Shown: piece by piece, positions 1 to 58,477 of the stretch
How positions within the stretch are numbered: the first letter of the stretch is position 1
Layout of the letters: every line of letters starts with the position of its first letter
Made by a program: the position numbers and the translations under genes
Notes under the pieces: model-generated
What the model saw: only the letters and a program-made list of their open reading frames with translations
The model's database searches: none
What the model was told of the DNA's origin: nothing
DNA from: Clostridia bacterium
GTDB taxonomy: Bacteria > Bacillota > Clostridia > CAKSNL01 > HGM11501
DNA: 64,000 nt
Reading direction: 5' to 3'
Assembly (NCBI GenBank): GCA_045545475.1
Contig: JAZQAZ010000002.1
Location: 35,071-99,070 of the forward strand

Positions 1-2322
1 ATAACACTTCCTTCTTTAACTGTTATTTCGGGATTTTCCTACACTCCCAGAACCGGAGGATCTACCACAGGATTTGTATTAAAATATGAACTTTATGCAG
101 CTGATGAAACATCAGAATTAAAGCTTATTAAATCCGGTGAGTTTGAAAAGAAGCTTGAAGAACAGACAGTTAAGTTTGACTATAATATCGAAGCTAAAAC
201 TGTTGTATTCAGAATGACTGAAACAGTTGCAACTTCAGGCGTTGTTGCAGAGTTTGACCTTCTTGCGGAAGATTCATCCCTCAGCAAAAAGGCGATTTCC
301 GATATAAGCGGTGCAACTCTTGAGGCAAGAAAAGAGGAAGAGGCTGCAGAAAGCAACAACAGTGCTGTATATGATAAAAGCACATGGAAGGCAGAAGCTT
401 CCAGCGTAATGGGCAAAATGGACGGCTCCTGGGTGCTTGACGGTAAGAGAGAAACCTACTGGCACACATACTACGAAGCAATAGACGGTAAGGCAGAAAA
501 CAAGACTCCTCCTCCTTATGACCTTACAATAGATTTGGGAGCAGAGTACGTTATTTCCGGTTTTGTTTACACTCCCAGAGAGGGTAATTCTACTACAGGC
601 CGTGTTACAAAGTATGAGTTTTACGGCTCTGACGGAAGCGATGACTTCAAACTTATTGCATCCGGCAGCTTTGTAAGCGATATGGAAATAAAGAATGTTA
701 AATTCAAAAATAACATTCCCGTTAAAAAGGTACAGTTCAAGATTCTTGAAGTTGTGGGCGGATGCGGCGTTGTAGCAGAATTTGACCTTTTGAAGGAAAA
801 TTCTTCACTTTCCAAGGTTGCACTTTCATCTGTTAAGGCTGAAGTGGTAGAAGCGACAAGTGGCGAAGCGGCAAAACCCGCGGCACCCACTACACCTGCA
901 GCTCCCGTAGCTCCTACTACACCTACGGGTGATTCCAAGAAGGTTGAAGGAGAAGTTCCCGTTGACGAGAGATACGTTGATAAAAACGGCTGGACCGCTT
1001 ATGCAAAGGACAGCTTCCCCTCAGGAAATACCATCGAAAAATCAATCGACGGCGATCCTAAAACCTTCTGGCATTCATACTATACAGCGGGTGAAAACGG
1101 AGGGGAGAACGTAAGACCTCCCATGCCTTATGATGTAATTTATACTCTTCCTAACGTTACAACAGTAGCAGGCTTCTGCTACACACCCAGACAGTCATCC
1201 GGTTCAAACTCCGGACGAGTTCTTGAGTATGAAATTTATGTAACAGGTGACGATTCCGATAACTGGGTGAAAATTACAGAAGGCAAGTTTACAAACGATG
1301 ATGCCGCAAAGGATGTTGACTTTGCAGCAAACATCGATGTAAAGAAGGTTATGTTCAGAATAACCTCCGGTATGAACAAATATGCCGTAATCGGTGAGTT
1401 TGACCTTATGGTTGAAAACGGACAGCTTGAAAAGGTTGAACTTGCAGGCTATGAACAGTTTGTAAAGGACAACAGAGTGTTCAAGCTTGATCCCAATCTT
1501 ATCGGTGCAGAAAGCGATTCTGTATGGAGCGGTCACATCGGAGCACACGCTTTTGACGGTAACTACGGAACCTTCTGGCACAAGAATCCTTCCGATACCG
1601 GCACAATGCTTCTTAAGGTTGACCTTGGAAAGATTTATACCGTGGCAGGATTTACCTATTATCCCAGACGTGACGATATAAAGGGACACTGGAAAAAGTT
1701 CAACCTCTATGCAAGTGTTGACGGAAACGAATTTTTCCCTGTTCTGGAAGATGAAGTTTTGGATGTTATTGATTTTACAAGCAAGGATGTAAGATTTAAT
1801 GAACCTGTAGAATTCCGCTATGTAGAATTTGAAATCACCGAATATCACGGCCATTGTGCTGCTGCAGAAATTGAATTCTATCAGACAAAGGAAATTGCAG
1901 TTGAAGAATCAAAATCCGAAAAATATGTTCTTCAGATAGATAACCCTGTAATAATATCCGAGATAGACGGAGAAGTTAAGGAAACAACACTTGACGTTGC
2001 TCCCTTTATAAAAAACAGCAATACAATGATTCCCTTAAGAGGATTGCTTGAAGCCATGGGTGCAACCATTGAATGGAACGGCGATAACCAGAGCATAAAA
2101 ATTGTAAAGGAATCTATCACAATTGATATGCAGATAAGAAATATTCTGGTTTATGTTACAAACGTAAAGGGTACAGTTCGCTATTCCTTCAGAACAGCCC
2201 CCGTAATAAAGGACGGAAGAACCTTTATTCCCTTAAGATTCATATCGGAAAATCTTGGATATGAAGTCGCATGGGACGGAGAGACAAGAACAATTACCAT
2301 AACAACTCCCGAAATTGAATAA
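1..2322 (+). CDS. Secreted multi-domain carbohydrate-binding protein, 5'-truncated by the window edge. It has at least 4 F5/8 type C (discoidin/CBM32-like) repeats and a C-terminal copper-amine-oxidase-N-terminal-like (stalk) domain.
   Basis: Frame 1 is open from base 1: ITLPSLTVISGFSYTPRTGGSTTGFVLKYELY precedes the ORF-track Met at 214. The repeat motif is YWH-x-YY..PPPYD-x-TIDLG..SGF-x-YTPR..G-R-V-x-x-YE-x-Y. A Pro/Ala/Thr linker (AKPAAPTTPAAPVAPTTP) is present. The C-terminus reads TMIPLRGLLEAMGATIEWNG and RTFIPLRFISENLGYEVAWDG. Confidence 0.8.
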   Translation: MTLPSLTVISGFSYTPRTGGSTTGFVLKYELYAADETSELKLIKSGEFEKKLEEQTVKFDYNIEAKTVVFRMTETVATSGVVAEFDLLAEDSSLSKKAISDISGATLEARKEEEAAESNNSAVYDKSTWKAEASSVMGKMDGSWVLDGKRETYWHTYYEAIDGKAENKTPPPYDLTIDLGAEYVISGFVYTPREGNSTTGRVTKYEFYGSDGSDDFKLIASGSFVSDMEIKNVKFKNNIPVKKVQFKILEVVGGCGVVAEFDLLKENSSLSKVALSSVKAEVVEATSGEAAKPAAPTTPAAPVAPTTPTGDSKKVEGEVPVDERYVDKNGWTAYAKDSFPSGNTIEKSIDGDPKTFWHSYYTAGENGGENVRPPMPYDVIYTLPNVTTVAGFCYTPRQSSGSNSGRVLEYEIYVTGDDSDNWVKITEGKFTNDDAAKDVDFAANIDVKKVMFRITSGMNKYAVIGEFDLMVENGQLEKVELAGYEQFVKDNRVFKLDPNLIGAESDSVWSGHIGAHAFDGNYGTFWHKNPSDTGTMLLKVDLGKIYTVAGFTYYPRRDDIKGHWKKFNLYASVDGNEFFPVLEDEVLDVIDFTSKDVRFNEPVEFRYVEFEITEYHGHCAAAEIEFYQTKEIAVEESKSEKYVLQIDNPVIISEIDGEVKETTLDVAPFIKNSNTMIPLRGLLEAMGATIEWNGDNQSIKIVKESITIDMQIRNILVYVTNVKGTVRYSFRTAPVIKDGRTFIPLRFISENLGYEVAWDGETRTITITTPEIE

Positions 2323-2323
2323 T

Positions 2324-2358
2324 AAAAAACGGTGCGGAATTTTCCGCACCGTTTTTTT
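2324..2358 (+). terminator. Rho-independent terminator
   Basis: Stem acggtgcgga / tccgcaccgt with a 4-nt loop and a T7 run, immediately after the stop at 2320-2322. Confidence 0.85.
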
Positions 2359-2481
2359 ATGAAACTTCACTTTCGATAAACTTTCGGTTGGTGGGATGTT
2401 GACAATTAAAGAAAAAAGTACTATACTGAGATGGAAAGAAAAATAGCAAAATATATCAATTCAATTGGACAATATAAATCA

Positions 2482-2510
2482 TTGACATTAATAATGCGCT
2501 AGGATATAAT
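2482..2510 (+). promoter_or_regulatory. Sigma-70-type promoter candidate
   Basis: TTGACA (2482-2487), 17 nt, TATAAT (2505-2510), about 30 nt upstream of the 2542 start. Confidence 0.55.
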
Positions 2511-2541
2511 AAAATCGCACAAAAGGGAAAGGGTTGATTTA

Positions 2542-5283
2542 ATGAAAAAAGTATGTATCTTGCTTACGGTTCTGGCTATGCTTATGTCAATGTGCATAGC
2601 TATATCGGCATCGGAAGATATTGTCCTGCTTCCGTCTGATGTGGATTATCAGACGGGTGTTTCGGTTTCTTCCGGTGAAATTGCCAAAATCAGAGCGGGA
2701 GGCCGCTTTGGTTTTGAAGGCGTTGACCTTACGGGGATAAAATCGATAACTGTTGAAGGTACCTGTAATTACGAGGGACGTAACAACGAAATTTTACAGG
2801 TGAGAGTGGGAAGCCCCGATAACGGCGGAACAGTAATTGCCTATGTAAGAATGGACGACGATACAAAGTCGAGCTTTTCTGCAGATATTGAAGTTCCCGT
2901 AACAGGCGTACAGAATTTATATTTTGTGGCACAGTTTTCCGGCGTAAGTGCTCCGGTGGCAGCCACCAAGGTAAATAAGGTTATTTTATCAAAAGAGCCT
3001 TCGGGAAATGAAAAATATGTTCCCATTCCCGATTCTGCCATAATAGATAACTACCACGATACTTGGGTTGCTGTTGACGGCATGGGCCGTGCTGTTGCCG
3101 ATTATGAAGAAGTTGGCGACCTTAGGGGCGAAGAAACCGAAATCGGTATGTTTTACTGGAATTGGCACGCCAGAGGAGAAAGTAACGTAAGAATCCCCTG
3201 GAAAATAAATGCTGAATTTCCCGAGGCTTATGACGATTACGAGCATCCTGCATGGGACTTAAAGGGCAGGTATTACTGGAATGAACCCATCTTCGGTTAT
3301 TATGACAATCTTGACTACTGGGTATACAGAAAGCAGGCAATACTTCTTGCCAATGCTGACGTTGACGTAATTTTCTTTGACGGAACAAATATGGCTAATG
3401 TATGGTATGCAGGTCTTAAAGTACAGTATGAAGCTTGGCGTGATGCAAGAGAATCCGGAGTTGATGCACCGGGTATTTCCTGGATTACATCCTGGAAGAC
3501 AGACCGTACACAGGCTGTTAAATACATATATCAGGAATTCTTCCGTGAGGGTAGATATTCTGATCTTTGGTATTACCGTGACGGCAAGCCTATGATTATT
3601 ACTGACAGAGCTCTTGTGGAAAGACTTGAATATCCCAATGACAGCATTGACGGGGCAATAACAAGGGAAGCCTTCAATTTCTTTTCTATGTACAGAACAG
3701 CAAGCCGTATTGAAGATAAAATAGGTCCTAATGATCAGCTTATGTGGCTTGATGTTTATCCTCAGAGTCTTTACGGTCAGGATGCATCGGGAAGAATACA
3801 GTTTGTATCATTGGGTATTGCAAAGAATGAATCTTATGTCTGGGGTCCCGGAACTGTCGGAGTATTCTCTGATCCCTATACAATGGGCAGAAGCTACACT
3901 GTGGCCTTCGGTGAAGACTGGAGAGAGGGAGCATACAGAGAAAACTACTTCTTCCTTGAGCAGGCAAGTCGTGTTCTTGACGTAGATCCTGCCTTCGTAT
4001 TCGTTGATGGCTGGAACGAGTGGATTGCAGGCAGACAGCACAGCTATTCTGGTGTTGAAAACTCCTTTGTTGATACCTATGATAACGAAGGAAGCAGAGA
4101 TATTGAACCCACACGAGGCGAGCTTAAGGACGATACCTACTGTCAGTTTGTTGACTTTGTAAGAAAGTATCAGGGCGTTCGCCCCGCACCTTTAGCAAGT
4201 GCTGAAAAGACAATTGATCTTGCAGGGGACATTGCTCAGTGGAACGATGTTTCTCCTGAATTTATCAACGATAATACGGATTTTGAGCGTGACAGCACAG
4301 GATATGTAAATCCTGATACGGGCGAGCGTTTCCATTATACAACAAAGGTGAATAATGCAATTTCCCGAGCAAAGGTTGCAAGAGATTCTGAAAACTTCTA
4401 CTTTATGGCAAAAACAACACGTCCTATCGTGGAAGGAACAGAAAACTGGATGAACCTTTACATAAATGTGGACAGAAACTATGCAACAGGCTTTGAAGGT
4501 TATGACTATGTTGTAAACTTTACCGGTGCAGGCGTAATTTCAAAGTTTGCCGATAAGGCATATACCGTTACAGATATTGGAAATGTTTCCTATAAGGTTA
4601 CAGGCGATACGCTGGTTATCGTTGTTCCAAAAGCTTTAATAGGCGAAACAGGAAAAGCTGACCTTGAATTTAAGTGGACAGACTCTGTTGACCCGAAGGG
4701 AGATATAGTTGAATTCTACAACGGCGGAAGCGTTGCTCCCATGGGACGCTTTAACTTCCTCTACACAGAAATAGCTCAGGTTGCTTTAAGTGAGGCTGAA
4801 AAATCTGCATTTACAGATGGGGCAATGATAGGCGAGGGTAAAATCAAAATGATTGCCGACGGTGCAAAGATGAAAGTTTATGAACCTGATACGAGATGTG
4901 TTCCCGTAATGGATAACGGTGTATTGTATTATCCTGCACGTGCACTTAACGATATTTTAGGCTATGGTGAAACAAAGGTTGAGTTTGAAGCAGATGATAA
5001 CATTCTTCATGTATCAACTCATAAGCTTGACGAAAATGACGATATAAGCGACGAATACTGGATTTATTCTGAAGTTGGTTCGCTTGATGCAAGAGTAAAC
5101 GGCTATCACAAAGCTCTCACAAATCCTGTAAAGATGATAAACGGAATTCCTTATGTGCCCGTAACCTATCTTTCAGATTGTCTTAGCTGGAAGCTTTATG
5201 ATGCAGGCGACGGAATTTATGCAATGAGCAAAACGGGAATTTCAGAAGAAATTATTGCCGGCGCAAAGGCACACTTAGGATAA
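2542..5283 (+). CDS. Secreted putative glycoside hydrolase with an N-terminal CBM6/35-like module, a central catalytic-like domain of unassigned family and a C-terminal stalk domain.
   Basis: Signal peptide MKKVCILLTVLAMLMSMCIAISA. CBM6/35-like segment: FGFEGVDLTGIKSITVEG..VRVGSPDNGGTVIAY..VTGVQNLYFV. Central motifs: MFYWNWH, DVIFFDGTN, FVDGWNEWIAG. C-terminal motifs: VLYYPARALNDILGY and IPYVPVTYLSDCLSW. RBS: aaagggaaaggg. Confidence 0.55.
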   Translation: MKKVCILLTVLAMLMSMCIAISASEDIVLLPSDVDYQTGVSVSSGEIAKIRAGGRFGFEGVDLTGIKSITVEGTCNYEGRNNEILQVRVGSPDNGGTVIAYVRMDDDTKSSFSADIEVPVTGVQNLYFVAQFSGVSAPVAATKVNKVILSKEPSGNEKYVPIPDSAIIDNYHDTWVAVDGMGRAVADYEEVGDLRGEETEIGMFYWNWHARGESNVRIPWKINAEFPEAYDDYEHPAWDLKGRYYWNEPIFGYYDNLDYWVYRKQAILLANADVDVIFFDGTNMANVWYAGLKVQYEAWRDARESGVDAPGISWITSWKTDRTQAVKYIYQEFFREGRYSDLWYYRDGKPMIITDRALVERLEYPNDSIDGAITREAFNFFSMYRTASRIEDKIGPNDQLMWLDVYPQSLYGQDASGRIQFVSLGIAKNESYVWGPGTVGVFSDPYTMGRSYTVAFGEDWREGAYRENYFFLEQASRVLDVDPAFVFVDGWNEWIAGRQHSYSGVENSFVDTYDNEGSRDIEPTRGELKDDTYCQFVDFVRKYQGVRPAPLASAEKTIDLAGDIAQWNDVSPEFINDNTDFERDSTGYVNPDTGERFHYTTKVNNAISRAKVARDSENFYFMAKTTRPIVEGTENWMNLYINVDRNYATGFEGYDYVVNFTGAGVISKFADKAYTVTDIGNVSYKVTGDTLVIVVPKALIGETGKADLEFKWTDSVDPKGDIVEFYNGGSVAPMGRFNFLYTEIAQVALSEAEKSAFTDGAMIGEGKIKMIADGAKMKVYEPDTRCVPVMDNGVLYYPARALNDILGYGETKVEFEADDNILHVSTHKLDENDDISDEYWIYSEVGSLDARVNGYHKALTNPVKMINGIPYVPVTYLSDCLSWKLYDAGDGIYAMSKTGISEEIIAGAKAHLG

Positions 5284-5296
5284 GGAGGGATAAAAT

Positions 5297-7321
5297 ATGA
5301 AAAAGTTAATATCTTTATTAATTACATTCTGTATGGTTTTATCTCTCGGCACAGTTCTTTCATATGCAGAGGATGAAATGCTTGATAAAAGCGGGTGGAC
5401 TGCAGAAGCCTCCAGCACATTTGCAAATTATACAGCAGAAAAAGTTCTTGACGGTAAGAGGGAAACATACTGGCACACGTATTATGAAGTAGTGGAGGGC
5501 AGGGCAGGAAACAAAACACCCCCTCCTTATGAGCTCACAATTGACCTGGGCAGAGAATTCGTTATTTCAGGCTTTTCATATCTTCCGAGAACAGGGGAGT
5601 CATCAACGGGAAGAGTTACAAAGTATGAAATCTACGGCTCGGACGGAACAGATAACTTTGTTTTAATCGGCTCGGGAGAATTTCCCAATAACGAGGATGA
5701 AAAAACAGTAAAGTTCAAAAACAACATTCCTGTTAATAAGATTAAGTATAAGATACTTGATGCCGTTGGCGGATGCGGCGTTGTTGCAGAATTTGACCTT
5801 GTCAAGGAGGATGCTGCACTTCCCAAGGTGGTGCTTTCTGATGTAACAGCTGAAACCTTTGTATCGGAAGCTCCTAAGGCAGAGGAAAAGCCCAAGGAAG
5901 AAAAACCTGCTGCAGGTACAGTGGCACCGTCGACCGGCGAGAAAAAGGTTGAAGGAGAAGTTCCCGTTGATCCGAGATACGTGGATAAAAACGGATGGAC
6001 AGCCTATGCAGAGCACAGCTTCCCCACGGGAGATACACCGGAAAAGTCCATCGACGGTAACCCAAAAAGCTACTGGCACTCATATTTCAAGACGGTTGAC
6101 GGAGTAAATCAGAAGGCACCCATGCCCTATGATATGATTTATACCCTTCCTTCCGTAACAAGCATAGCAGGCTTTTGCTACACCCCCAGACAGACCGATG
6201 GTTCAACATCAGGTATCGTACTTGAATATGAATTTTACGGAAGTGCGGACGGCTCCGATAACTGGGTAATGATTGAATCCGGCACATTCACAAATGACAG
6301 AGCCTCAAAGGACGTTCACTTTATATGCAACCTTGATGTTAAAAAGGTTATGTTCAGAGTTAAGTCCGGTCTTAACGGCTATGCTGTAATAGGCGAATTT
6401 GACCTTATGGTAAAAAGGGATGGAATTACTACCGTACCTCTTTCCGAGTATGAAGCATATAAGGAAGAAAACAAGGTGGTATATGTTGATACAGACGGAA
6501 TAAAGGCAGAATCCAGCTCCGAATGGACAGGTCATGCTGCATCGCTGGCGGTTGACGGAAATCCGGGCAGCTACTGGCATAAGAATCCCGATGATAAGGG
6601 AATGATTCTTTTAAGGATTGACCTTGGCAGGGAATACGAAATAGCAGGCTTTACCTATTATCCCAGACGTGACGATATAAAGGGACACTGGAAGAAGTAC
6701 AATATGTATGCAAGTACCGATGATAACGAGTATGTATCTGTACTCAGTGGTGCGACTTTTGATGTAATTGACTATACAAGTAAGGATATAAGGTTTGCAG
6801 AGCCTGTTAAAATGCGATATGTGGAATTTGAAATAGACGAATACCACGGACACTGTGCGGCGGCTGAAATAGGCTTTTATCAGACAAAGGAAATTGTTCA
6901 GGAAGAAAAGGTTTTTGAAAAATATGTACTCCAGATAGATAATCCTTTGATAAAGTCTGAGATAAATGGCGTAACAAAGGAAACGACTCTTGACGTGTCT
7001 CCATTCATTAAAAATGGTAATACGATGATACCTTTAAGAGGTTTGCTTGAAGAAATGGGTGCAACCATTGAATGGAACGGCGACAATCAATCTATAAAGG
7101 TTAAAAAAGGCTTAATCACAATAGATATGCAGATAAGAAGAAAACAGGTTTATGTGACAAACGCCAAGGGAACTATTCGTTATTCATTCAGAACAGCTCC
7201 CATAATAAAGGATTCAAGAACCTTTATTCCGTTAAGATTCATCTCTGAAAATCTTGGGTATGATGTAATCTGGAACGGTGAAACAAGAACCATTACGATT
7301 CAGACTCCCGAAGAAGAGTAA
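5297..7321 (+). CDS. Secreted protein with three F5/8 type C (discoidin) repeats and a C-terminal stalk domain; paralog of the 1-2322 product.
   Basis: Signal peptide MKKLISLLITFCMVLSLGTVLSYA. It has the same repeat motifs and domain order as 1-2322. By eye the C-terminal ~130 aa are about 80% identical (EKYVLQIDNP..TMIPLRGLLEEMGATIEWNGDNQSIK..RTFIPLRFISENLGYDVIWNGETRTITI). RBS: aggaggg. Confidence 0.85.
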   Translation: MKKLISLLITFCMVLSLGTVLSYAEDEMLDKSGWTAEASSTFANYTAEKVLDGKRETYWHTYYEVVEGRAGNKTPPPYELTIDLGREFVISGFSYLPRTGESSTGRVTKYEIYGSDGTDNFVLIGSGEFPNNEDEKTVKFKNNIPVNKIKYKILDAVGGCGVVAEFDLVKEDAALPKVVLSDVTAETFVSEAPKAEEKPKEEKPAAGTVAPSTGEKKVEGEVPVDPRYVDKNGWTAYAEHSFPTGDTPEKSIDGNPKSYWHSYFKTVDGVNQKAPMPYDMIYTLPSVTSIAGFCYTPRQTDGSTSGIVLEYEFYGSADGSDNWVMIESGTFTNDRASKDVHFICNLDVKKVMFRVKSGLNGYAVIGEFDLMVKRDGITTVPLSEYEAYKEENKVVYVDTDGIKAESSSEWTGHAASLAVDGNPGSYWHKNPDDKGMILLRIDLGREYEIAGFTYYPRRDDIKGHWKKYNMYASTDDNEYVSVLSGATFDVIDYTSKDIRFAEPVKMRYVEFEIDEYHGHCAAAEIGFYQTKEIVQEEKVFEKYVLQIDNPLIKSEINGVTKETTLDVSPFIKNGNTMIPLRGLLEEMGATIEWNGDNQSIKVKKGLITIDMQIRRKQVYVTNAKGTIRYSFRTAPIIKDSRTFIPLRFISENLGYDVIWNGETRTITIQTPEEE

Positions 7322-39747: not shown

Positions 39748-39781
39748 AAAAAAGAGAGCGTATAAATACGCTCTCTTTTTT
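39748..39781. terminator. Bidirectional hairpin terminator shared by rnpB and the convergent capD-like gene
   Basis: agagagcgta-taaa-tacgctctct with an A-run upstream and a T6 run downstream. Confidence 0.85.
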
Positions 39782-41672
39782 AATTATCTGTTCTTTTATA
39801 TGTGGGGACAACCTTGTGTACGGCTTCTTTTATTATGTCCGGATCCGATGTTTTGACAGCCTCCGACAATACGGAAAGTTTTTGATTGACTTCTTCGATT
39901 GTAATATCGAAGGGCTTTCCGATGAATATTTTTTCGTGAGAGGTATCGGTTAATCCTTCTTCGCTCATTAAAAGTTCCTCGTAAAGCTTTTCTCCGGGAC
40001 GAAGACCTGTAACCTTAATTGGAATGTCCACATTGGGAGTGAATCCTGAAAGACGTATAAGGTTTTCAGCAAGGTCATAAATTCTTACCGGACTTCCCAT
40101 ATCAAGTACAAATATTTCTCCGCCACCCGCATTTGCCGCCGCTTGAATTACAAGCTGAGAGGCTTCGGGTATTGTCATAAAGAATCGGGTGATGTCCTTG
40201 TGGGTTACGGTAACAGGACCACCGTGGGCAATTTGTCTTTTGAAAAGAGGGATAACACTTCCGTTGGAGCCAAGTACGTTTCCGAATCGTACAGCAACAA
40301 ATTTAGTATCACTTACCTTATCCATTGCCTGAATAATCATTTCGCACATTCTCTTTGTTGCACCCATGACATTTGTGGGATTAACGGCTTTGTCTGTGGA
40401 AATCATTACAAACTTTGAAACGTTGTGTTTTGCGGCATAAGTGGCAACGTTATATGTGCCGAATACATTGTTTTTAATTGCTTCTCCGGGCGAATCTTCC
40501 ATAAGAGGAACGTGCTTGTGTGCAGCTGCATGGAAAATTATGCTGGGTTTATATGTGGAAAATACAGCATCAAGGCGTTCTCCGTCTCTGATAGATGCAA
40601 TTATCACGGAAAGATTTAAATCGGGATAACTTCCACGAAGCTCCATCTGGAGGTCATAGGCATTGTTTTCGTATATATCAAGAACGATAAGGTGGGAGGG
40701 GGAAAACTTGGCAATCTGTCTGCAAAGCTCGCTTCCGATTGAACCTCCTCCGCCGGTTACCATAACGACCTTTCCTTTAATATCTTCTTCAACTGCACTG
40801 TTGTCAAGTACAATGCTGTCTCTTGCGAGAAGGTCTTCGATTTCTACGTTACGGGAAACAAATTTTTGCGGATCACCGTCCACAAGTGAGTTTTTTGCAC
40901 TTTCCATAATTTTAAGTTTACAGCCTGTTTTGTTGCATTTATTAAGAATGGCTGTACGCTCTTTTGCGGAAAGTGAAGGAATAGCAAGGTGTATTTCGTC
41001 AACGGAATGGTTTGAACAGATGGATTCAATATCATCAAGCGAACCTAAAATACGAACATCCTCTATGAAAGAGTTCTTTTTTCTGTAATCATCATCTATA
41101 AATCCTACAATATTGTAAAATACATTGGAATTGATATCGGTAATGAGGTTGTGAAGCAATATGTTTCCGCCGTCACCGGCACCGATGATAAGAACGTTTA
41201 CCGTTTTTGAAGAGGTTGTTTTTTGCTTTCTGATTTTTGATATTTTTGATATTCCTCTTATTGCCATTCTTGAAAGAATAGCCCAAAGGAAAAATGTTAT
41301 ATTATAAAGAACGGCAAAACGTTCACCGATATACTGCGATACACCAGAGAAGAAAAGGGAACTTATAAGAGTATTGATTGCAGAAGAAATGATTAGGGAG
41401 AATATAAGTCTGATATAATTCTTTGTGCCTGCATAAAGCCACATTACTTGCTGACTTCTGGACAAGGTGATTGTAAGAAGGTATATAGCTATGGTAATCA
41501 GAAGATATAAAACATCAAAATTATCGAAAGAGGTTTTAACGGTAAAAATGTCAGGGATTGAATGAACTGATGTGTTTAAAAAAACCTTGGTAAAGAAATA
41601 TACTAAGATGGCTACAATAAAATCGTAAAACAATAAATATCTGTTTCTTGTGAATTTTTTAAAGTATTTCAT
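39780..41672 (-). CDS. capD: Membrane-anchored polysaccharide biosynthesis protein, CapD/EpsC-type NDP-sugar 4,6-dehydratase/epimerase
   Basis: N-terminal TM helices and two Rossmann motifs (IIGAGDGG and VTGGGGSIGSEL). The start is taken at the second Met (41672) because of the ggggag RBS. 41693 is also possible. Confidence 0.8.
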   Translation of the reverse strand: MKYFKKFTRNRYLLFYDFIVAILVYFFTKVFLNTSVHSIPDIFTVKTSFDNFDVLYLLITIAIYLLTITLSRSQQVMWLYAGTKNYIRLIFSLIISSAINTLISSLFFSGVSQYIGERFAVLYNITFFLWAILSRMAIRGISKISKIRKQKTTSSKTVNVLIIGAGDGGNILLHNLITDINSNVFYNIVGFIDDDYRKKNSFIEDVRILGSLDDIESICSNHSVDEIHLAIPSLSAKERTAILNKCNKTGCKLKIMESAKNSLVDGDPQKFVSRNVEIEDLLARDSIVLDNSAVEEDIKGKVVMVTGGGGSIGSELCRQIAKFSPSHLIVLDIYENNAYDLQMELRGSYPDLNLSVIIASIRDGERLDAVFSTYKPSIIFHAAAHKHVPLMEDSPGEAIKNNVFGTYNVATYAAKHNVSKFVMISTDKAVNPTNVMGATKRMCEMIIQAMDKVSDTKFVAVRFGNVLGSNGSVIPLFKRQIAHGGPVTVTHKDITRFFMTIPEASQLVIQAAANAGGGEIFVLDMGSPVRIYDLAENLIRLSGFTPNVDIPIKVTGLRPGEKLYEELLMSEEGLTDTSHEKIFIGKPFDITIEEVNQKLSVLSEAVKTSDPDIIKEAVHKVVPTYKRTDN

Positions 41673-41877
41673 CTGAGACAGCTCCCCTTGCATAGAAATA
41701 TCCTATATTCAATTTATTATATCATATTGATTAAGGAAAAGCAAGGGGCAAAAAAACAAGGAATCTCTACGATTTTTCTCGAAAAACTTGATTTTTAATA
41801 GTTAATGTGGTAAAATATTATATTAAATTATTACATTAAATTATTATACTGATTTTTATAGTAGGAAATGGGAAGAG

Positions 41878-53942: not shown

Positions 53943-54587
53943 ATGAGTATATTAGAACTGGAAAAGATTTCTTTTTCCTATGACGGAAAAAATTATGTCT
54001 TAAAAGATTATTCCTGCACTTTTGAGCGCGGAAAGATTTATGCAATTATAGGTAAATCCGGAGCTGGTAAAACCACACTGTTGTCTTTACTTGCAGGACT
54101 GGATAAAGTAAAGGAAGGAAAAATTCTTTACGATGGCAAAGAGGTTTCGAATATAGACCGCTATTCTTACAGAAACAGTAATGTAGGTGTTGTATTTCAG
54201 AGCTACAATTTGTTACCTAAACTTACGGCAAAAGAAAATGTAGAGTTATCCATGGAAATATCTAAAAAGAAAATCAAGAACAAGCGTAAACGTGCAACTG
54301 AGCTTTTGAACAAAGTGGGTCTTCTGGATGATGAAATAGACAGACGCGTACTTAAGCTTTCGGGCGGTCAGCAGCAGCGTGTTGCTATAGCCAGAGCACT
54401 GTCTTTTGAGCCTGATATAATTTTAGCGGATGAACCTACAGGAAACCTTGACCCCGAAACACAGAATGAAATATTAAAGATTTTCAGAAAAATAGCACAG
54501 GAAGACAATAAGTGCGTAATTGTTGTAACACATTCTGATTCTGTTGCAAGTCAGGCAGATGTTGTATACGAACTTAAAAAAAGATAG
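53943..54587 (+). CDS. ABC transporter ATP-binding protein (MacB/LolD-type)
   Basis: Walker A GKSGAGKTT, signature LSGGQQQRVAIARAL, Walker B IILADEPTGNLD, H-loop VVTHS. Confidence 0.9.
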   Translation: MSILELEKISFSYDGKNYVLKDYSCTFERGKIYAIIGKSGAGKTTLLSLLAGLDKVKEGKILYDGKEVSNIDRYSYRNSNVGVVFQSYNLLPKLTAKENVELSMEISKKKIKNKRKRATELLNKVGLLDDEIDRRVLKLSGGQQQRVAIARALSFEPDIILADEPTGNLDPETQNEILKIFRKIAQEDNKCVIVVTHSDSVASQADVVYELKKR

Positions 54588-54600
54588 GGGGCAATAAAAC

Positions 54601-55371
54601 ATGAAAAAAATAATAGGAATATTTCTTACAATTGCGGTTTTGACATGTTTGCTTGGTACAATGAGTTTTGCTAATGACAACATAATAGTTAAGCTTGATG
54701 ACAAAGAATTGGTATTCGACCAGAATCCTGTTATTGTAAACGGCAGAACTATGGTACCTTTAAGAGTAATCTTTGAGAGCCTTGGTGCAACCATTGAGTG
54801 GGACGGAGCTACACAGACTGTTACAGCAACAAAGGGAGATATTAAAGTAATTGTTCAGGTTAATAATAACATAATGTTAAAAAACCAGGAACAGATCACA
54901 TTGGATGTTGCTCCTCAGATTATTGGTTCAAGAACTTTGGTTCCTGCGAGAGCAATTTCGGAAAGCTTTAATTGTAATGTTGCATGGGATGGGGATATAA
55001 GCCTTGTTAAGATTACAACAGAGAGCTACGCTGCTGCTGATACTGCAGCAATAAATGTATATGCAGCAGACGGAAGAGTAAAGGTTATAAAAGCATCCGA
55101 TGCTGAAATTTATGCAAGATACGGCTGGAACGAGAAGACCTTTACCATGTATGCAGCAGACGGAAGAACAATAGAAGTAAAGGAATCCGAAGTTGAGGCA
55201 TATGGACAGGTTGGATGGTTCATGTCAGAGGAAGAAGCTGCCAACGGCGGACAGGGTCCCGGTCCTGATGGACAGGAGCCACAGGAACCGGAAGAGCCAG
55301 AGCCTCCGGCAGAGGGAAGCGGACCTATGGGAGAAAAGCCTGAAAAACCCTCAAGACCTCCTCGCCCATAA
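54601..55371 (+). CDS. Secreted stalk-domain (copper amine oxidase N-terminal-like) protein with a duplicated YAADGR..GW motif and a Pro/Glu-rich tail
   Basis: Signal peptide. Stalk motifs RTMVPLRVIFESLGATIEWDG and RTLVPARAISESFNCNVAWDG. Two copies of YAADGR-x6-S-x-x-E-x-Y-x3-GW. Tail: GPGPDGQEPQEPEEPEPPAEG..KPEKPSRPPRP. Confidence 0.7.
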   Translation: MKKIIGIFLTIAVLTCLLGTMSFANDNIIVKLDDKELVFDQNPVIVNGRTMVPLRVIFESLGATIEWDGATQTVTATKGDIKVIVQVNNNIMLKNQEQITLDVAPQIIGSRTLVPARAISESFNCNVAWDGDISLVKITTESYAAADTAAINVYAADGRVKVIKASDAEIYARYGWNEKTFTMYAADGRTIEVKESEVEAYGQVGWFMSEEEAANGGQGPGPDGQEPQEPEEPEPPAEGSGPMGEKPEKPSRPPRP

Positions 55372-55376
55372 AAATG

Positions 55377-55411
55377 AAAAGTTCTGCAAACTTGGTTTGC
55401 AGAACTTTTTT
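55377..55411 (+). terminator. Rho-independent terminator ending the long plus-strand gene string
   Basis: gttctgcaaac-ttg-gtttgcagaac followed by a T6 run. Confidence 0.85.
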
Positions 55412-55431
55412 CTCGGGATAAAGCCGATTGG

Positions 55432-56133
55432 CGGTTGTTTATCAATATGCAAATAAAAAAGCCGTATACCTTTGGTATACGACCTTTTTATTTGGTGCCG
55501 GTGGCGGGACGCATATTGCTTCGCAATTTGCCTGGCTCATCGACCCAATTGCAGAGTAATTCGGTACCCGATTTCGCCGCTTTTTGCTAAAAACGATAAT
55601 CAATCGTTTTTTTACGCAAAAACCCTCTTAGTGTTCAAGTCCCTTTCATCAATATACAAATAAAAAGAGCAATATACCTTGCGGTACACTGCTCTTTTTA
55701 TTTGGTGCCGGTGGCGGGACGCATACGTTGATCTGCCCTGCTTGCCCACCGAAATGCCTTGCATTTCAGTACCGGACTTCGTACCGCTCGCCTAAAAACA
55801 ATAATCAATTGTTTTATAAACGGCTCGCGCCCTCTTAGTGTTCAAGTCCCTTTTATCAATATACAAATAAAAAAAGCCGTATACCTTTGGTATACGACCT
55901 TTTTATTTGGTGATGAGTGGCGGGACGCATATTGCTTCGCAATCTGCCTGGCTCATCGACCCAATTGCAGAGCAATTCGGTACCCGATTTCGCCGCTTTT
56001 TGCTAAAAACGATAATTAATCGTTTTTTTACGCAAAAACCCTCTTAGGGTTCAAGTCCCTTTTATCAATATGCAAATAAAAAAGCCGTATACCTTTGGTA
56101 TACGACCTTTTTATTTGGTGCCGGTGGCGGGAC
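55432..56133. repeat. Tandem array of three ~207-bp units. Each unit holds a copy of the last 18 nt of tRNA-Leu, a structured ~140-nt module and a copy of the tRNA terminator.
   Basis: tggtgccggtggcgggac occurs at 55493-55510 and 55703-55720, at 55908-55926 as a variant, and at 56116-56133 in the real tRNA 3' end. The shared flank is atcaatat[g/a]caaataaaaa plus a hairpin plus tttttattt. Modules 1 and 3 are near-identical and module 2 is diverged. Confidence 0.9.
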
Positions 56134-56202
56134 TTGAACCCGCACGCCATCGCTGGCAATGGATTTTGAGTCCACCTCGTCTGCCAATTCCAACACACCG
56201 GC
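56116..56202 (-). tRNA. tRNA-Leu (anticodon CAA), type II with a long variable arm and an encoded CCA
   Basis: The minus-strand sequence is gccggtgtgttggaattggcagacgaggtggaCTCAAAAtccattgccagcgatggcgtgcgggttcaagtcccgccaccggcacca. The acceptor stem is gccggtg/caccggc, the T-arm is gcggg-ttcaagt-cccgc and the anticodon loop is CT-CAA-AA. Confidence 0.92.
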
Positions 56203-56227
56203 GTTCGATAAATTATTATACAACATA

Positions 56228-56259
56228 AAAGGAAAAAAAGCAAGCACTTTTTTTCCTTT
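56228..56259 (-). terminator. AT-rich hairpin terminator candidate after tmcAL
   Basis: aaaggaaaaaaag-caagca-ctttttttccttt. The stem is weak and mostly A-T. Confidence 0.45.
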
Positions 56260-56266
56260 TTATAAA

Positions 56267-58477
<2,211 letters not shown>

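Follow-up and report, generated by a model that had tools for sequence, protein, structure and literature searches.

Structured, protein-less modules with an antisense T-arm guide form arrays behind tRNA genes of gut and rumen Clostridia

We analysed a tandem array located behind the tRNA-Leu(CAA) gene of a Clostridia bacterium (contig JAZQAZ010000002.1, positions 35,071 to 99,070; this whole stretch of 64,000 nucleotides is referred to as the window) and found that its three modules are members of a widespread family of structured modules of ~135 nt. The modules are mobile and contain no protein gene, their 5' end is antisense to the T-arm of the host tRNA, and their 3' flank is the host's own 3' end. 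In the following text, the conserved part of a module is termed the core, its first 13 nt the guide, the 18 nt behind the core the tag, the terminator-bearing segment behind the tag the trailer, and the short stretch between the terminator and the next core the leader. It is probable, in our opinion, though far from certain, that the three modules of the array are copies of a mobile element which is non-autonomous and guided by base pairing, and the active form of which is a structured nucleic acid (~135 nt) of tRNA sense, most likely an RNA produced by read-through.

A scan of one genome per species detected the 5' 21-mer of the modules at at least 119 loci (designated by L numbers below). 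The carriers are gut and rumen Clostridia (Oscillospiraceae, Acutalibacteraceae, Ruminococcus, Anaerovoracaceae, Congzhengia and the isolate Emergencia timonensis), and in nearly all of the loci listed the 21-mer lies a few nucleotides past the terminator of a tRNA gene (Leu, Pro, Thr or Met). The family is not specific to tRNA-Leu(CAA), the gene at which an earlier interpretation of the window, made from its letters without database searches (the sequence-only reading), had described the modules; copies do exist at other tRNA 3' ends, and none was found beside an integrase at the loci examined.

The first 13 nt of the module are the reverse complement of the T-arm of the host tRNA, positions 51-63 (GGGTTCAAGTCCC; 56129-56141 on the minus strand of the window). 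The application of ARAGORN to all loci identified 92 distinct host tRNAs, i.e. Leu-GAG (41), Leu-TAG (17), Leu-CAA (7), Leu-CAG (6), Leu-AAG (3), Pro (11; CGG 9, GGG 2), Thr (6; TGT 3, CGT 3) and Met (1). The exact T-arm GGGTTCAAGTCCC was present in 88 of these 92 hosts, compared with 12 of the 38 non-host tRNAs of the same loci, and this match is an independent observation, because the loci had been picked by the module motif and not by the tRNA. It also permitted an a priori prediction: a lineage aimed at the commonest bacterial T-arm should read GGATTCGAACCCTAAGAGGG (a 20-mer). This sequence had one match in the whole metagenome collection (L128), and the module concerned is placed 62 nt behind a tRNA-Leu(TAG) gene with the T-arm GGGTTCGAATCCC, ends in the 3' end of this same tRNA (CGAATCCCTTCGCCCGCACCA) and matches the covariance model of the family (R1, see below) over its full length, with 65.8 bits. 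A change at two guide positions is therefore matched by a change at the two facing T-loop positions, and the closing helix of the fold (P1) is altered along with both. The end shared by all three window modules, ccctcttag[t/g]gttcaagtccc when read on the plus strand and GGGACTTGAAC(A/C)CTAAGAGGG on the minus strand (three matches, none in shuffles), had been recognised in the sequence-only reading; its description as a T-arm-like hairpin oriented opposite to the tRNA did not survive, since on the functional strand this segment is the complement of the host T-arm, that is, an antisense guide.

The second line of evidence is the fold. Forty-four full modules (seed alignment A2) were used for an RNAalifold consensus, and the model R1 was built for the family. 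The consensus is a five-way junction with 37 pairs, 27 of which show compensatory changes. R1 gave 148 matches (111 + 37) in the module loci, with scores of 117-125 bits for the modules of the window. In an alignment of 111 sequences (A3), 93.3% of the cells pair, compared with 71.0 +/- 0.5% after shuffling (0 of 500 shuffles reached the observed value); both-side changes occurred in 32 of the 37 pairs, and pairing fell to 35-49% in a control in which the partners were slid by 1-3 columns. The secondary structure is thus conserved in a compensatory manner and on one strand, as expected of a structured non-coding RNA. Since G-U and U-G cells (96) far outnumber A-C and C-A cells (18), the folded strand is the tRNA-sense one (minus in the window). 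The junction is closed by P1 (GGGAC/GUCCC), formed between guide and tag by the first 5 nt of each, and contains the small hairpin CCCU-AAG-AGGG, P2 (two helices, outer and inner), P3 (UGC/GCA as outer helix, a bulged GGU, and ACC/GGU) and the variable P4, connected by the conserved joining strands GGUGCGNAG and CAAGCAGG. One of the two explanations offered by the sequence-only reading, namely terminator-bounded structured RNAs that exploit the tRNA 3' tag, is supported by this result and extended to a covarying, tRNA-sense fold of a large family.

Some other structural possibilities were considered and abandoned. Plain MAFFT followed by alifold on all 84 modules gave a poor structure, and a length-filtered seed with a covariance model was needed instead. 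Pairing of the acceptor strand of the tag with the conserved GGUGCG joiner was rejected, as the joiner is constant while the tag varies (Leu, Pro, Thr), without covariation in A2. Hammerhead, hairpin-ribozyme (A/GUC site) and HDV-like (hepatitis delta virus) folds were dismissed by eye, since the required internal loops and pseudoknot strands are absent. That the core can accommodate additional domains is shown by one family member (L071:191-456), in which ~115 nt of further structured sequence separate the 21-mer from helix P2.

The third line of evidence comes from the tag, which varies with the host tRNA. In most tRNA-adjacent modules the 18 nt following the core equal tRNA positions 59-76 with no mismatch, even where the sequence further downstream is unrelated. 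CCA is likewise missing from the tag at loci whose tRNA gene lacks it (L013, L048, L074, L084, L105 and L113), and the tag is therefore copied from the gene or the primary transcript and not from the mature tRNA. The 18-nt length had suggested that mature tRNA might serve as a primer or template of reverse transcription stopping at 1-methyladenosine 58 (m1A58); the CCA-less tags rule against this idea, as does the left boundary, which varies (59 in most modules, ~56 in L128, ~55-56 in L018, L050 and the type B modules described below). Cores with 96.5% identity were found at Leu-CAG and Leu-GAG, where tag, trailer and leader differ between the two, and cores with 90.6% identity at Leu and Thr. 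Hence it is the core that moves, whereas the target supplies the tag and trailer. In copies with near-identical trailers the repeat extends from G59 to 0-5 nt past the T-run of the terminator, and in young copies the insert starts exactly at G1 of the core.

The array of the window follows this architecture. Its host is the single tRNA gene found in the window (56116-56202, CCA encoded; detected by ARAGORN and, with 51 bits, by the Rfam tRNA model); this gene and all features of the array are on the minus strand, and TATAAT at 56215-56220 is, by its sequence and position, likely the tRNA's own promoter. On that strand the tRNA is followed by trailer, terminator and leader, core 3, tag, trailer, core 2, tag, trailer, core 1, tag and trailer. 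The cores are 130-133 nt long; each starts with GGGACTTGAAC(C/A)CTAAGAGGG and stops just before the GTCCC of its tag. The trailer of the tRNA (56060-56115; terminator scan and alignment A1) comprises the terminator hairpin (stem 56086-56104), a T-run and an 18-nt A/T-rich leader that reaches module 3. The core of module 3 (55927-56059; R1 122.5 bits, full length; fold z = -4.45) has an intact guide, GGGACTTGAACCC (56047-56059), and folds into P1, the small CCCU-AAG-AGGG hairpin, P2, P3 and P4, as is typical of the family. Behind its tag (55908-55926) lies the second copy of trailer, terminator and leader (55851-55907; minus-strand terminator 55904-55870), and then the core of module 2 (55721-55850; R1 117.4 bits), which belongs to a different subtype and has one guide mismatch (GGGACTTGAACAC). 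Tag 2 (55703-55720) is an exact copy of tRNA positions 59-76 and is followed by a trailer copy with a different terminator stem (AGAGCAGTGTACC/GGTATATTGCTCT) and a leader (55644-55702; minus-strand terminator 55702-55659, 20 pairs). The core of module 1 (55511-55643; R1 124.5 bits) is of the same subtype as module 3; its tag (55493-55510) is again exact, and a last copy of trailer, terminator and leader (55440-55492; seen in the sequence, by Tandem Repeats Finder and in the alignment) ends distally at ...GATAAA, the point where another core would start. The terminator scan returned eight terminator-like sites, against 1.4 expected.

Everything that the sequence-only reading had recorded of the sequence here was reproduced, with one correction that concerns the folded strand. 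The last 18 nt of the tRNA (GTCCCGCCACCGGCACCA, minus strand) occur exactly at 55493-55510, 55703-55720 and 56116-56133 (none in shuffles), and the copy of positions 59-76 at 55908-55926 is indeed a 19-nt variant (GTCCCGCCACTCATCACCA). The period of 210/205/208 was recovered, Tandem Repeats Finder giving a period of 207 and 3.4 copies over 55438-56133; each unit has its terminator-like hairpin, with the different stem in one, and module 2 is diverged with its hairpins kept (alignments and consensus fold). Modules 1 and 3 are nearly identical apart from the variant tag, their cores differing by 4 substitutions, which include a guide mismatch (the guides of modules 1 and 2 both carry a C-to-A change) and a change in P3. 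The latter had been taken for a G-C pair turned into G-U; on the folded minus strand it is an A-C mismatch. Judged from these sequences, the array is old and composite and not the product of a recent triplication, because module 2 represents another subtype, the nearest relative of which occurs in L005, at only 76% identity of TmcAL (the nucleotidyltransferase encoded beside the array).

The variant tag 3 differs from the tRNA by a 1-nt insertion and two substitutions, which create CTCATC at 55912-55917. This is the perfect complement of GATGAG (55944-55949), located 30 nt upstream inside module 3, and in module 2 the CCACCG of the normal tag is complementary to CGGTGG at a similar place. Such complementarity could be due to chance, to a templated (quasi-palindrome) mutation or to a real alternative helix.

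The array is flanked by housekeeping genes (the TmcAL-type nucleotidyltransferase, pta, ackA and an ABC transporter). Proteins with a copper-amine-oxidase N-terminal-like domain are the products of four window genes (214-7321 and 54601-55371). Two of these, apparently a tandem pair of recent origin, have F5/8 type C domains in addition, and one of the four stops 60 nt from the array, with which it has a bidirectional terminator region in common.

Orthologous loci were reached through homologues of TmcAL (the TmcAL protein of the window itself had no exact record). Behind tRNA-Leu(CAA), L005 (76% TmcAL identity) contains one module resembling module 2 of the window and a second module type, L006 (67%) one module resembling modules 1 and 3 together with a truncated one, and L008 (67%) a decayed stub only. 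Among close relatives the copy number ranges from one decayed stub to three copies. L002 (93%) and L004 (79%) have a different core at this position, which we named type B. It is unrelated to the main family, is not matched by R1 and occurs at L002:5283-5640, L004:6353-6440 and L005:2925-3010. Type B consists of two hairpins inside a 9-bp closing stem, GGGACTTGA/TCAAG(C)TCCC, and has in common with the main family only the T-arm-antisense 5' GGGACTTGAAC and the T-loop-derived 3' TCAAGTCCCGCC. The remnant ...CC(C)TAAGAGGG behind it gives the impression that type B entered the guide of a type-A module by insertion or recombination. Rumen contigs binned as Alphaproteobacteria (L043:7568-7878 and L062:99-284) also carry arrays, of a module variant that is shorter (tag GTCCCTCTGGACCTACCA); this reflects either mis-binning or spread of the family outside Clostridia. 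The contigs of the two closest relatives (L001:6100-6185 and L003:1190-1436; TmcAL identity 98% and 93%) break just before the tRNA or inside the first module. Such contig ends fit repeats that break short-read assemblies, and the family is probably under-represented in metagenome-assembled genomes.

We also surveyed, in 82 arrays, where the similarity to the repeat unit stops on the distal side. It stops exactly at the end of the tag in 38 arrays, at the T-run in 9, in the leader (the class of the window array) in 5, inside the next core in 14, inside the trailer in 5 and before the end of the tag in 9 (detection errors among them); in the remaining 2 the unit runs past the compared sequence. 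Orthologous loci diverge right after the tag (L023/L076 compared with L034; L030 compared with L070). A Polysacc_synt_2/CoA_binding_3 gene directly follows the tRNA-Leu array in L004 (6750-8624), L006 (6832-8703) and L008 (6517-8388). In the window the gene of this type (39780-41693, minus strand) is found 14 kb away on the other side, and synteny is broken exactly at the distal end of the array. The distal array end is therefore a hot spot of rearrangement.

Near the modules examined, no linked gene for a protein that might move them was found. The 48 open reading frames (ORFs) of at least 110 amino acids in the window gave no Pfam match to integrase, transposase, reverse transcriptase or phage families, as the sequence-only reading had noted for integrase, transposase and phage genes, and no integrase or recombinase was encoded by the 20 ORFs flanking modules at other loci, where the genes encode an AraC regulator, oxidoreductases, a sigma factor, SfsA, RlmL and FeoB. 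Interrupted or truncated modules and the regions downstream of tags were inspected for cargo or an integrase and yielded only ordinary genes. A recombinase may nevertheless act in trans. The 21-mer is absent from IMG/VR (2.9 million viral contigs) and hence does not represent the attP of a phage, and a blastn search of phage and plasmid records with the window array matched only the tRNA part. A cmscan of 54500-57200 against Rfam 15 (E <= 5) retrieved only the tRNA, as all other hits were far below gathering and of unrelated types; the modules did not qualify as members of any of the Rfam families compared, which include IS605-orfB, HEARO, HDV-like, hatchet, hammerhead, Y RNA/YrlA and tmRNA. 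A limited, keyword-based search of full-text literature found no description of the family. Provisionally, we regard it as a new kind, without counterpart among the families compared.

To explain these data we propose the following mechanism. A unit comprises the 13-nt 5' guide, the conserved multi-helix core and the 3' tag, which runs from the T-loop (position 59) to the tRNA 3' end and often on through the terminator. The active RNA would be made from the tRNA promoter by read-through of the tRNA terminator, and its guide would pick, by base pairing, tRNA genes or transcripts with a matching T-arm. A copy-choice event (template switch) at the shared GUCCC, i.e. at P1, could then join the core to the target's own 3' segment, so that the new copy would come to lie behind the tRNA terminator with the tag of that tRNA. 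Copying would probably depend on a reverse transcriptase that acts in trans. The arrays may be expanded by unequal crossing-over between tags and spread by recombination with naive tRNA alleles, with the tRNA as left and the tag as right homology arm; this recombination would account for the large number of arrays whose end coincides exactly with that of the tRNA. We put forward a more specific version only tentatively and consider it rather unlikely: a protein-less small RNA with a programmable 13-nt T-arm guide, joined to a tRNA 3' fragment either by its own catalysis, as a trans-splicing-like ribozyme, or by a hijacked reverse transcriptase, with a splint geometry that would also allow it to provide spare 3' halves for tRNA repair. 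Such a class of RNA-based mobile elements would be absent from all the sources searched.

Several observations weigh against the proposal of an RNA intermediate. The commonest distal boundary is the tRNA 3' end, which site-specific or homologous recombination fits at least as well as retroposition, and truncated copies retain the 5' part of the core, whereas a sense RNA that was incompletely reverse-transcribed would leave the opposite part. Neither the window nor the examined loci yielded a reverse transcriptase or any other partner. The terminator and promoter scan of the window revealed no promoter before the modules, and their expression would therefore depend on terminator read-through. 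The covariation of the guide comes from a single variant lineage (L128). Moreover, the loops of P2, P3 and P4 are mostly C-G-closed triloops (GCGAAGC, C-GCA-G, C-GGU-G; e.g. 55935-55947 and 55967-55981) and not GNRA or UNCG loops. C-G-closed loops of the GCGAAGC type form very stable mini-hairpins in single-stranded DNA, and the active form may thus be single-stranded DNA. These loops, the 5'-retaining truncations and the lack of an identified enzyme keep mechanisms based on single-stranded DNA or on a trans-acting recombinase alive, and the perfect tags, together with the splint-like geometry, are also compatible with a role for the host, exerted on the tRNA itself.

Movement as folded single-stranded DNA, by means of a HUH or tyrosine enzyme of the host or supplied in trans and with the sense strand exposed as lagging-strand template, would resemble that of the palindrome-associated transposable elements (PATEs) of IS200/IS605, integron attC sites and the attP site of CTX phage. 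We judge it improbable: although the triloops, the conservation of structure on one strand only, the lack of a preceding promoter and the partial terminal units in arrays all agree with it, the core 3' end has no conserved cleavage tetranucleotides or motif resembling a transposon-associated motif, the left end of the unit (tag and terminator) is target-derived and not conserved, tnpA, tnpB and intI are not linked (window and examined loci), Rfam gave no match to IS605-type or other mobile-element RNAs, and a five-way junction with conserved single-stranded joiners exceeds the complexity of known single-stranded DNA recombination sites. A small RNA beneficial to the host, for instance a cis-encoded "spare 3' half" or processing factor with mobility as a secondary trait, seems less probable again. 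The patchy presence and copy number among close relatives, the frequent truncated or mutated copies, and the divergent subtypes within arrays and hopping of cores between tRNAs, which are selfish traits, all speak against it, and no catalytic motif was recognised. In its favour, the fold is under purifying selection, and the identity of the tag with the adjoining tRNA despite unrelated flanking trailers suggests selection on the tag. Furthermore, guide nt 6-13 are predicted to pair with tRNA positions 51-58 and nt 1-5 with 59-63 of the tag, so that A58 would be placed beside G59 of the tag and the guide might splint the T-arm (51-58) next to the tag (59-76) in tRNA repair or quality control.

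Lower still we rank the other explanation of the sequence-only reading, which invoked decayed attachment (att) scars of miniature integrative elements. In this model, akin to cis-mobilizable elements (CIMEs), a tyrosine or serine recombinase acts in trans, the 207-bp unit is attP, an identity block restores the tRNA 3' end, and arrays arise by serial integration at attL/attR. A repeat that extends from the T-loop to the tRNA 3' end is the classical identity-block pattern of tRNA-integrating elements, and in 38 of the 82 arrays it ends exactly there, CCA-less genes included; the attP-like unit size, the tandem arrangement and the terminator that each unit provides to the tRNA also agree with it. 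Serial insertion at the tRNA 3' end is borne out by our results, for modules that are mobile and tags that are target-derived. The integrase-type scars are not: no integrase is present in the 64-kb window or beside any module examined, the motif is absent from the viral contigs, and phage and plasmid records match the window array only at its tRNA part. The 96.5% identical cores carry different, tRNA-matched tags, and an identity block borne by the element could vary in this way only at the cost of a broken tRNA. One would not expect a double-stranded att site to have five helices joined by conserved strands, or a G-U strand bias, and the covariation of guide and T-arm is left unexplained. As for chance, simple local duplication or an assembly artefact, the contig of the closest relative (L001) does break just before the tRNA, as repeats cause contigs to do. 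We regard this possibility as negligible and already refuted by the repetition of the architecture in more than 100 independent assemblies from many studies and by the pairing statistics of the fold. In addition, the repeats have no match in shuffles, and the strong divergence of module 2, compared with modules 1 and 3, speaks against a recent triplication.

The modules resemble several known systems without being identical to any of them. Integrative elements, CIMEs and genomic-island scars at tRNA 3' ends also have a direct repeat of the tRNA 3' end starting in the T-loop (here the 18-nt block of positions 59-76, exact in most loci), restore an intact tRNA, accrete in tandem and are bordered by hypervariable DNA distal to the repeat. 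Unlike them, the modules lack a linked integrase at the examined loci, form a unit of only ~200 bp, have a covarying single-strand fold with an antisense T-arm guide, and carry a tag that follows the host while the core is constant, so that the identity block does not travel with the element. With the omega RNA/reRNA of IS200/IS605, PATEs and the IS110 bridge RNA they have in common a scaffold of ~130 nt followed by a target-matching segment of ~18 nt, and a target presumably chosen by base pairing; the module ends, complementary to opposite target strands around a short shared core, recall the left and right target guides of the bridge RNA. However, no TnpA, TnpB, IscB or IS110 recombinase is encoded adjacently, no Rfam match was obtained, the insertion leaves a target duplication of 60-80 bp instead of none, and the module sits behind the terminator without splitting the target. 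The left end is variable and target-derived, and the nucleotides before the tag are not conserved, in contrast to IS200/IS605 PATEs and omega RNAs, to which the modules do not belong. Nor do they belong to integron attC sites, as the ends GGGACTTGAACCC and GTCCC are, by eye, only 5/7 similar to R''/R' (RYYYAAC/GTTRRRY), the fold is a five-way junction and not a single hairpin, and the window contains no intI.

Parallels exist among retroelements as well. Like R2 in rDNA and short interspersed nuclear elements (SINEs), the modules are non-autonomous and have no promoter of their own (expression would rely on co-transcription with a highly expressed stable-RNA gene), RNA-like insert ends (the 5' nucleotide is defined, and the terminator marks the 3' side) and target duplications of variable length. 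They differ from these elements in being bacterial, in targeting by a 13-nt antisense guide, in having no known reverse transcriptase partner, in keeping the 5' and not the 3' end when truncated, and in the lack of any recognised self-cleaving ribozyme motif. Class C (IIC) group II introns insert just downstream of intrinsic terminators, a position that the modules also occupy; their movement as RNA and their recognition of the target by base pairing correspond to what is proposed here for the modules. The module, in contrast, is ~135 nt long (compared with >600 nt) and has no match to Rfam introns, both of which argue against membership, and it has no domain V/VI or GUGYG 5' end; its paired target, the T-arm, lies ~70 nt upstream of the insertion point, and its unit includes a duplicate of the 3' end of the tRNA.

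Whatever the mechanism, the family accounts for recurrent assembly breaks and for "partial tRNA" annotations beside tRNA-Leu, tRNA-Pro and tRNA-Thr genes, and its modules mark hot spots of synteny breakage. The model R1 can be used directly to annotate the family, and a compact RNA composed of guide and scaffold is a candidate targeting tool. If the proposed explanation is true, antisense pairing to the most conserved tRNA hairpin would represent a new way in which mobile DNA chooses its target, with a specificity that appears re-programmable, as one lineage has been retargeted from TTCAAGT to TTCGAAT loops. The modules would then be the first bacterial element to live off the read-through of tRNA genes, as R2 lives off rDNA, and they would hint at an unrecognised route from RNA to DNA, or at RNA catalysis, in abundant gut and rumen Clostridia.

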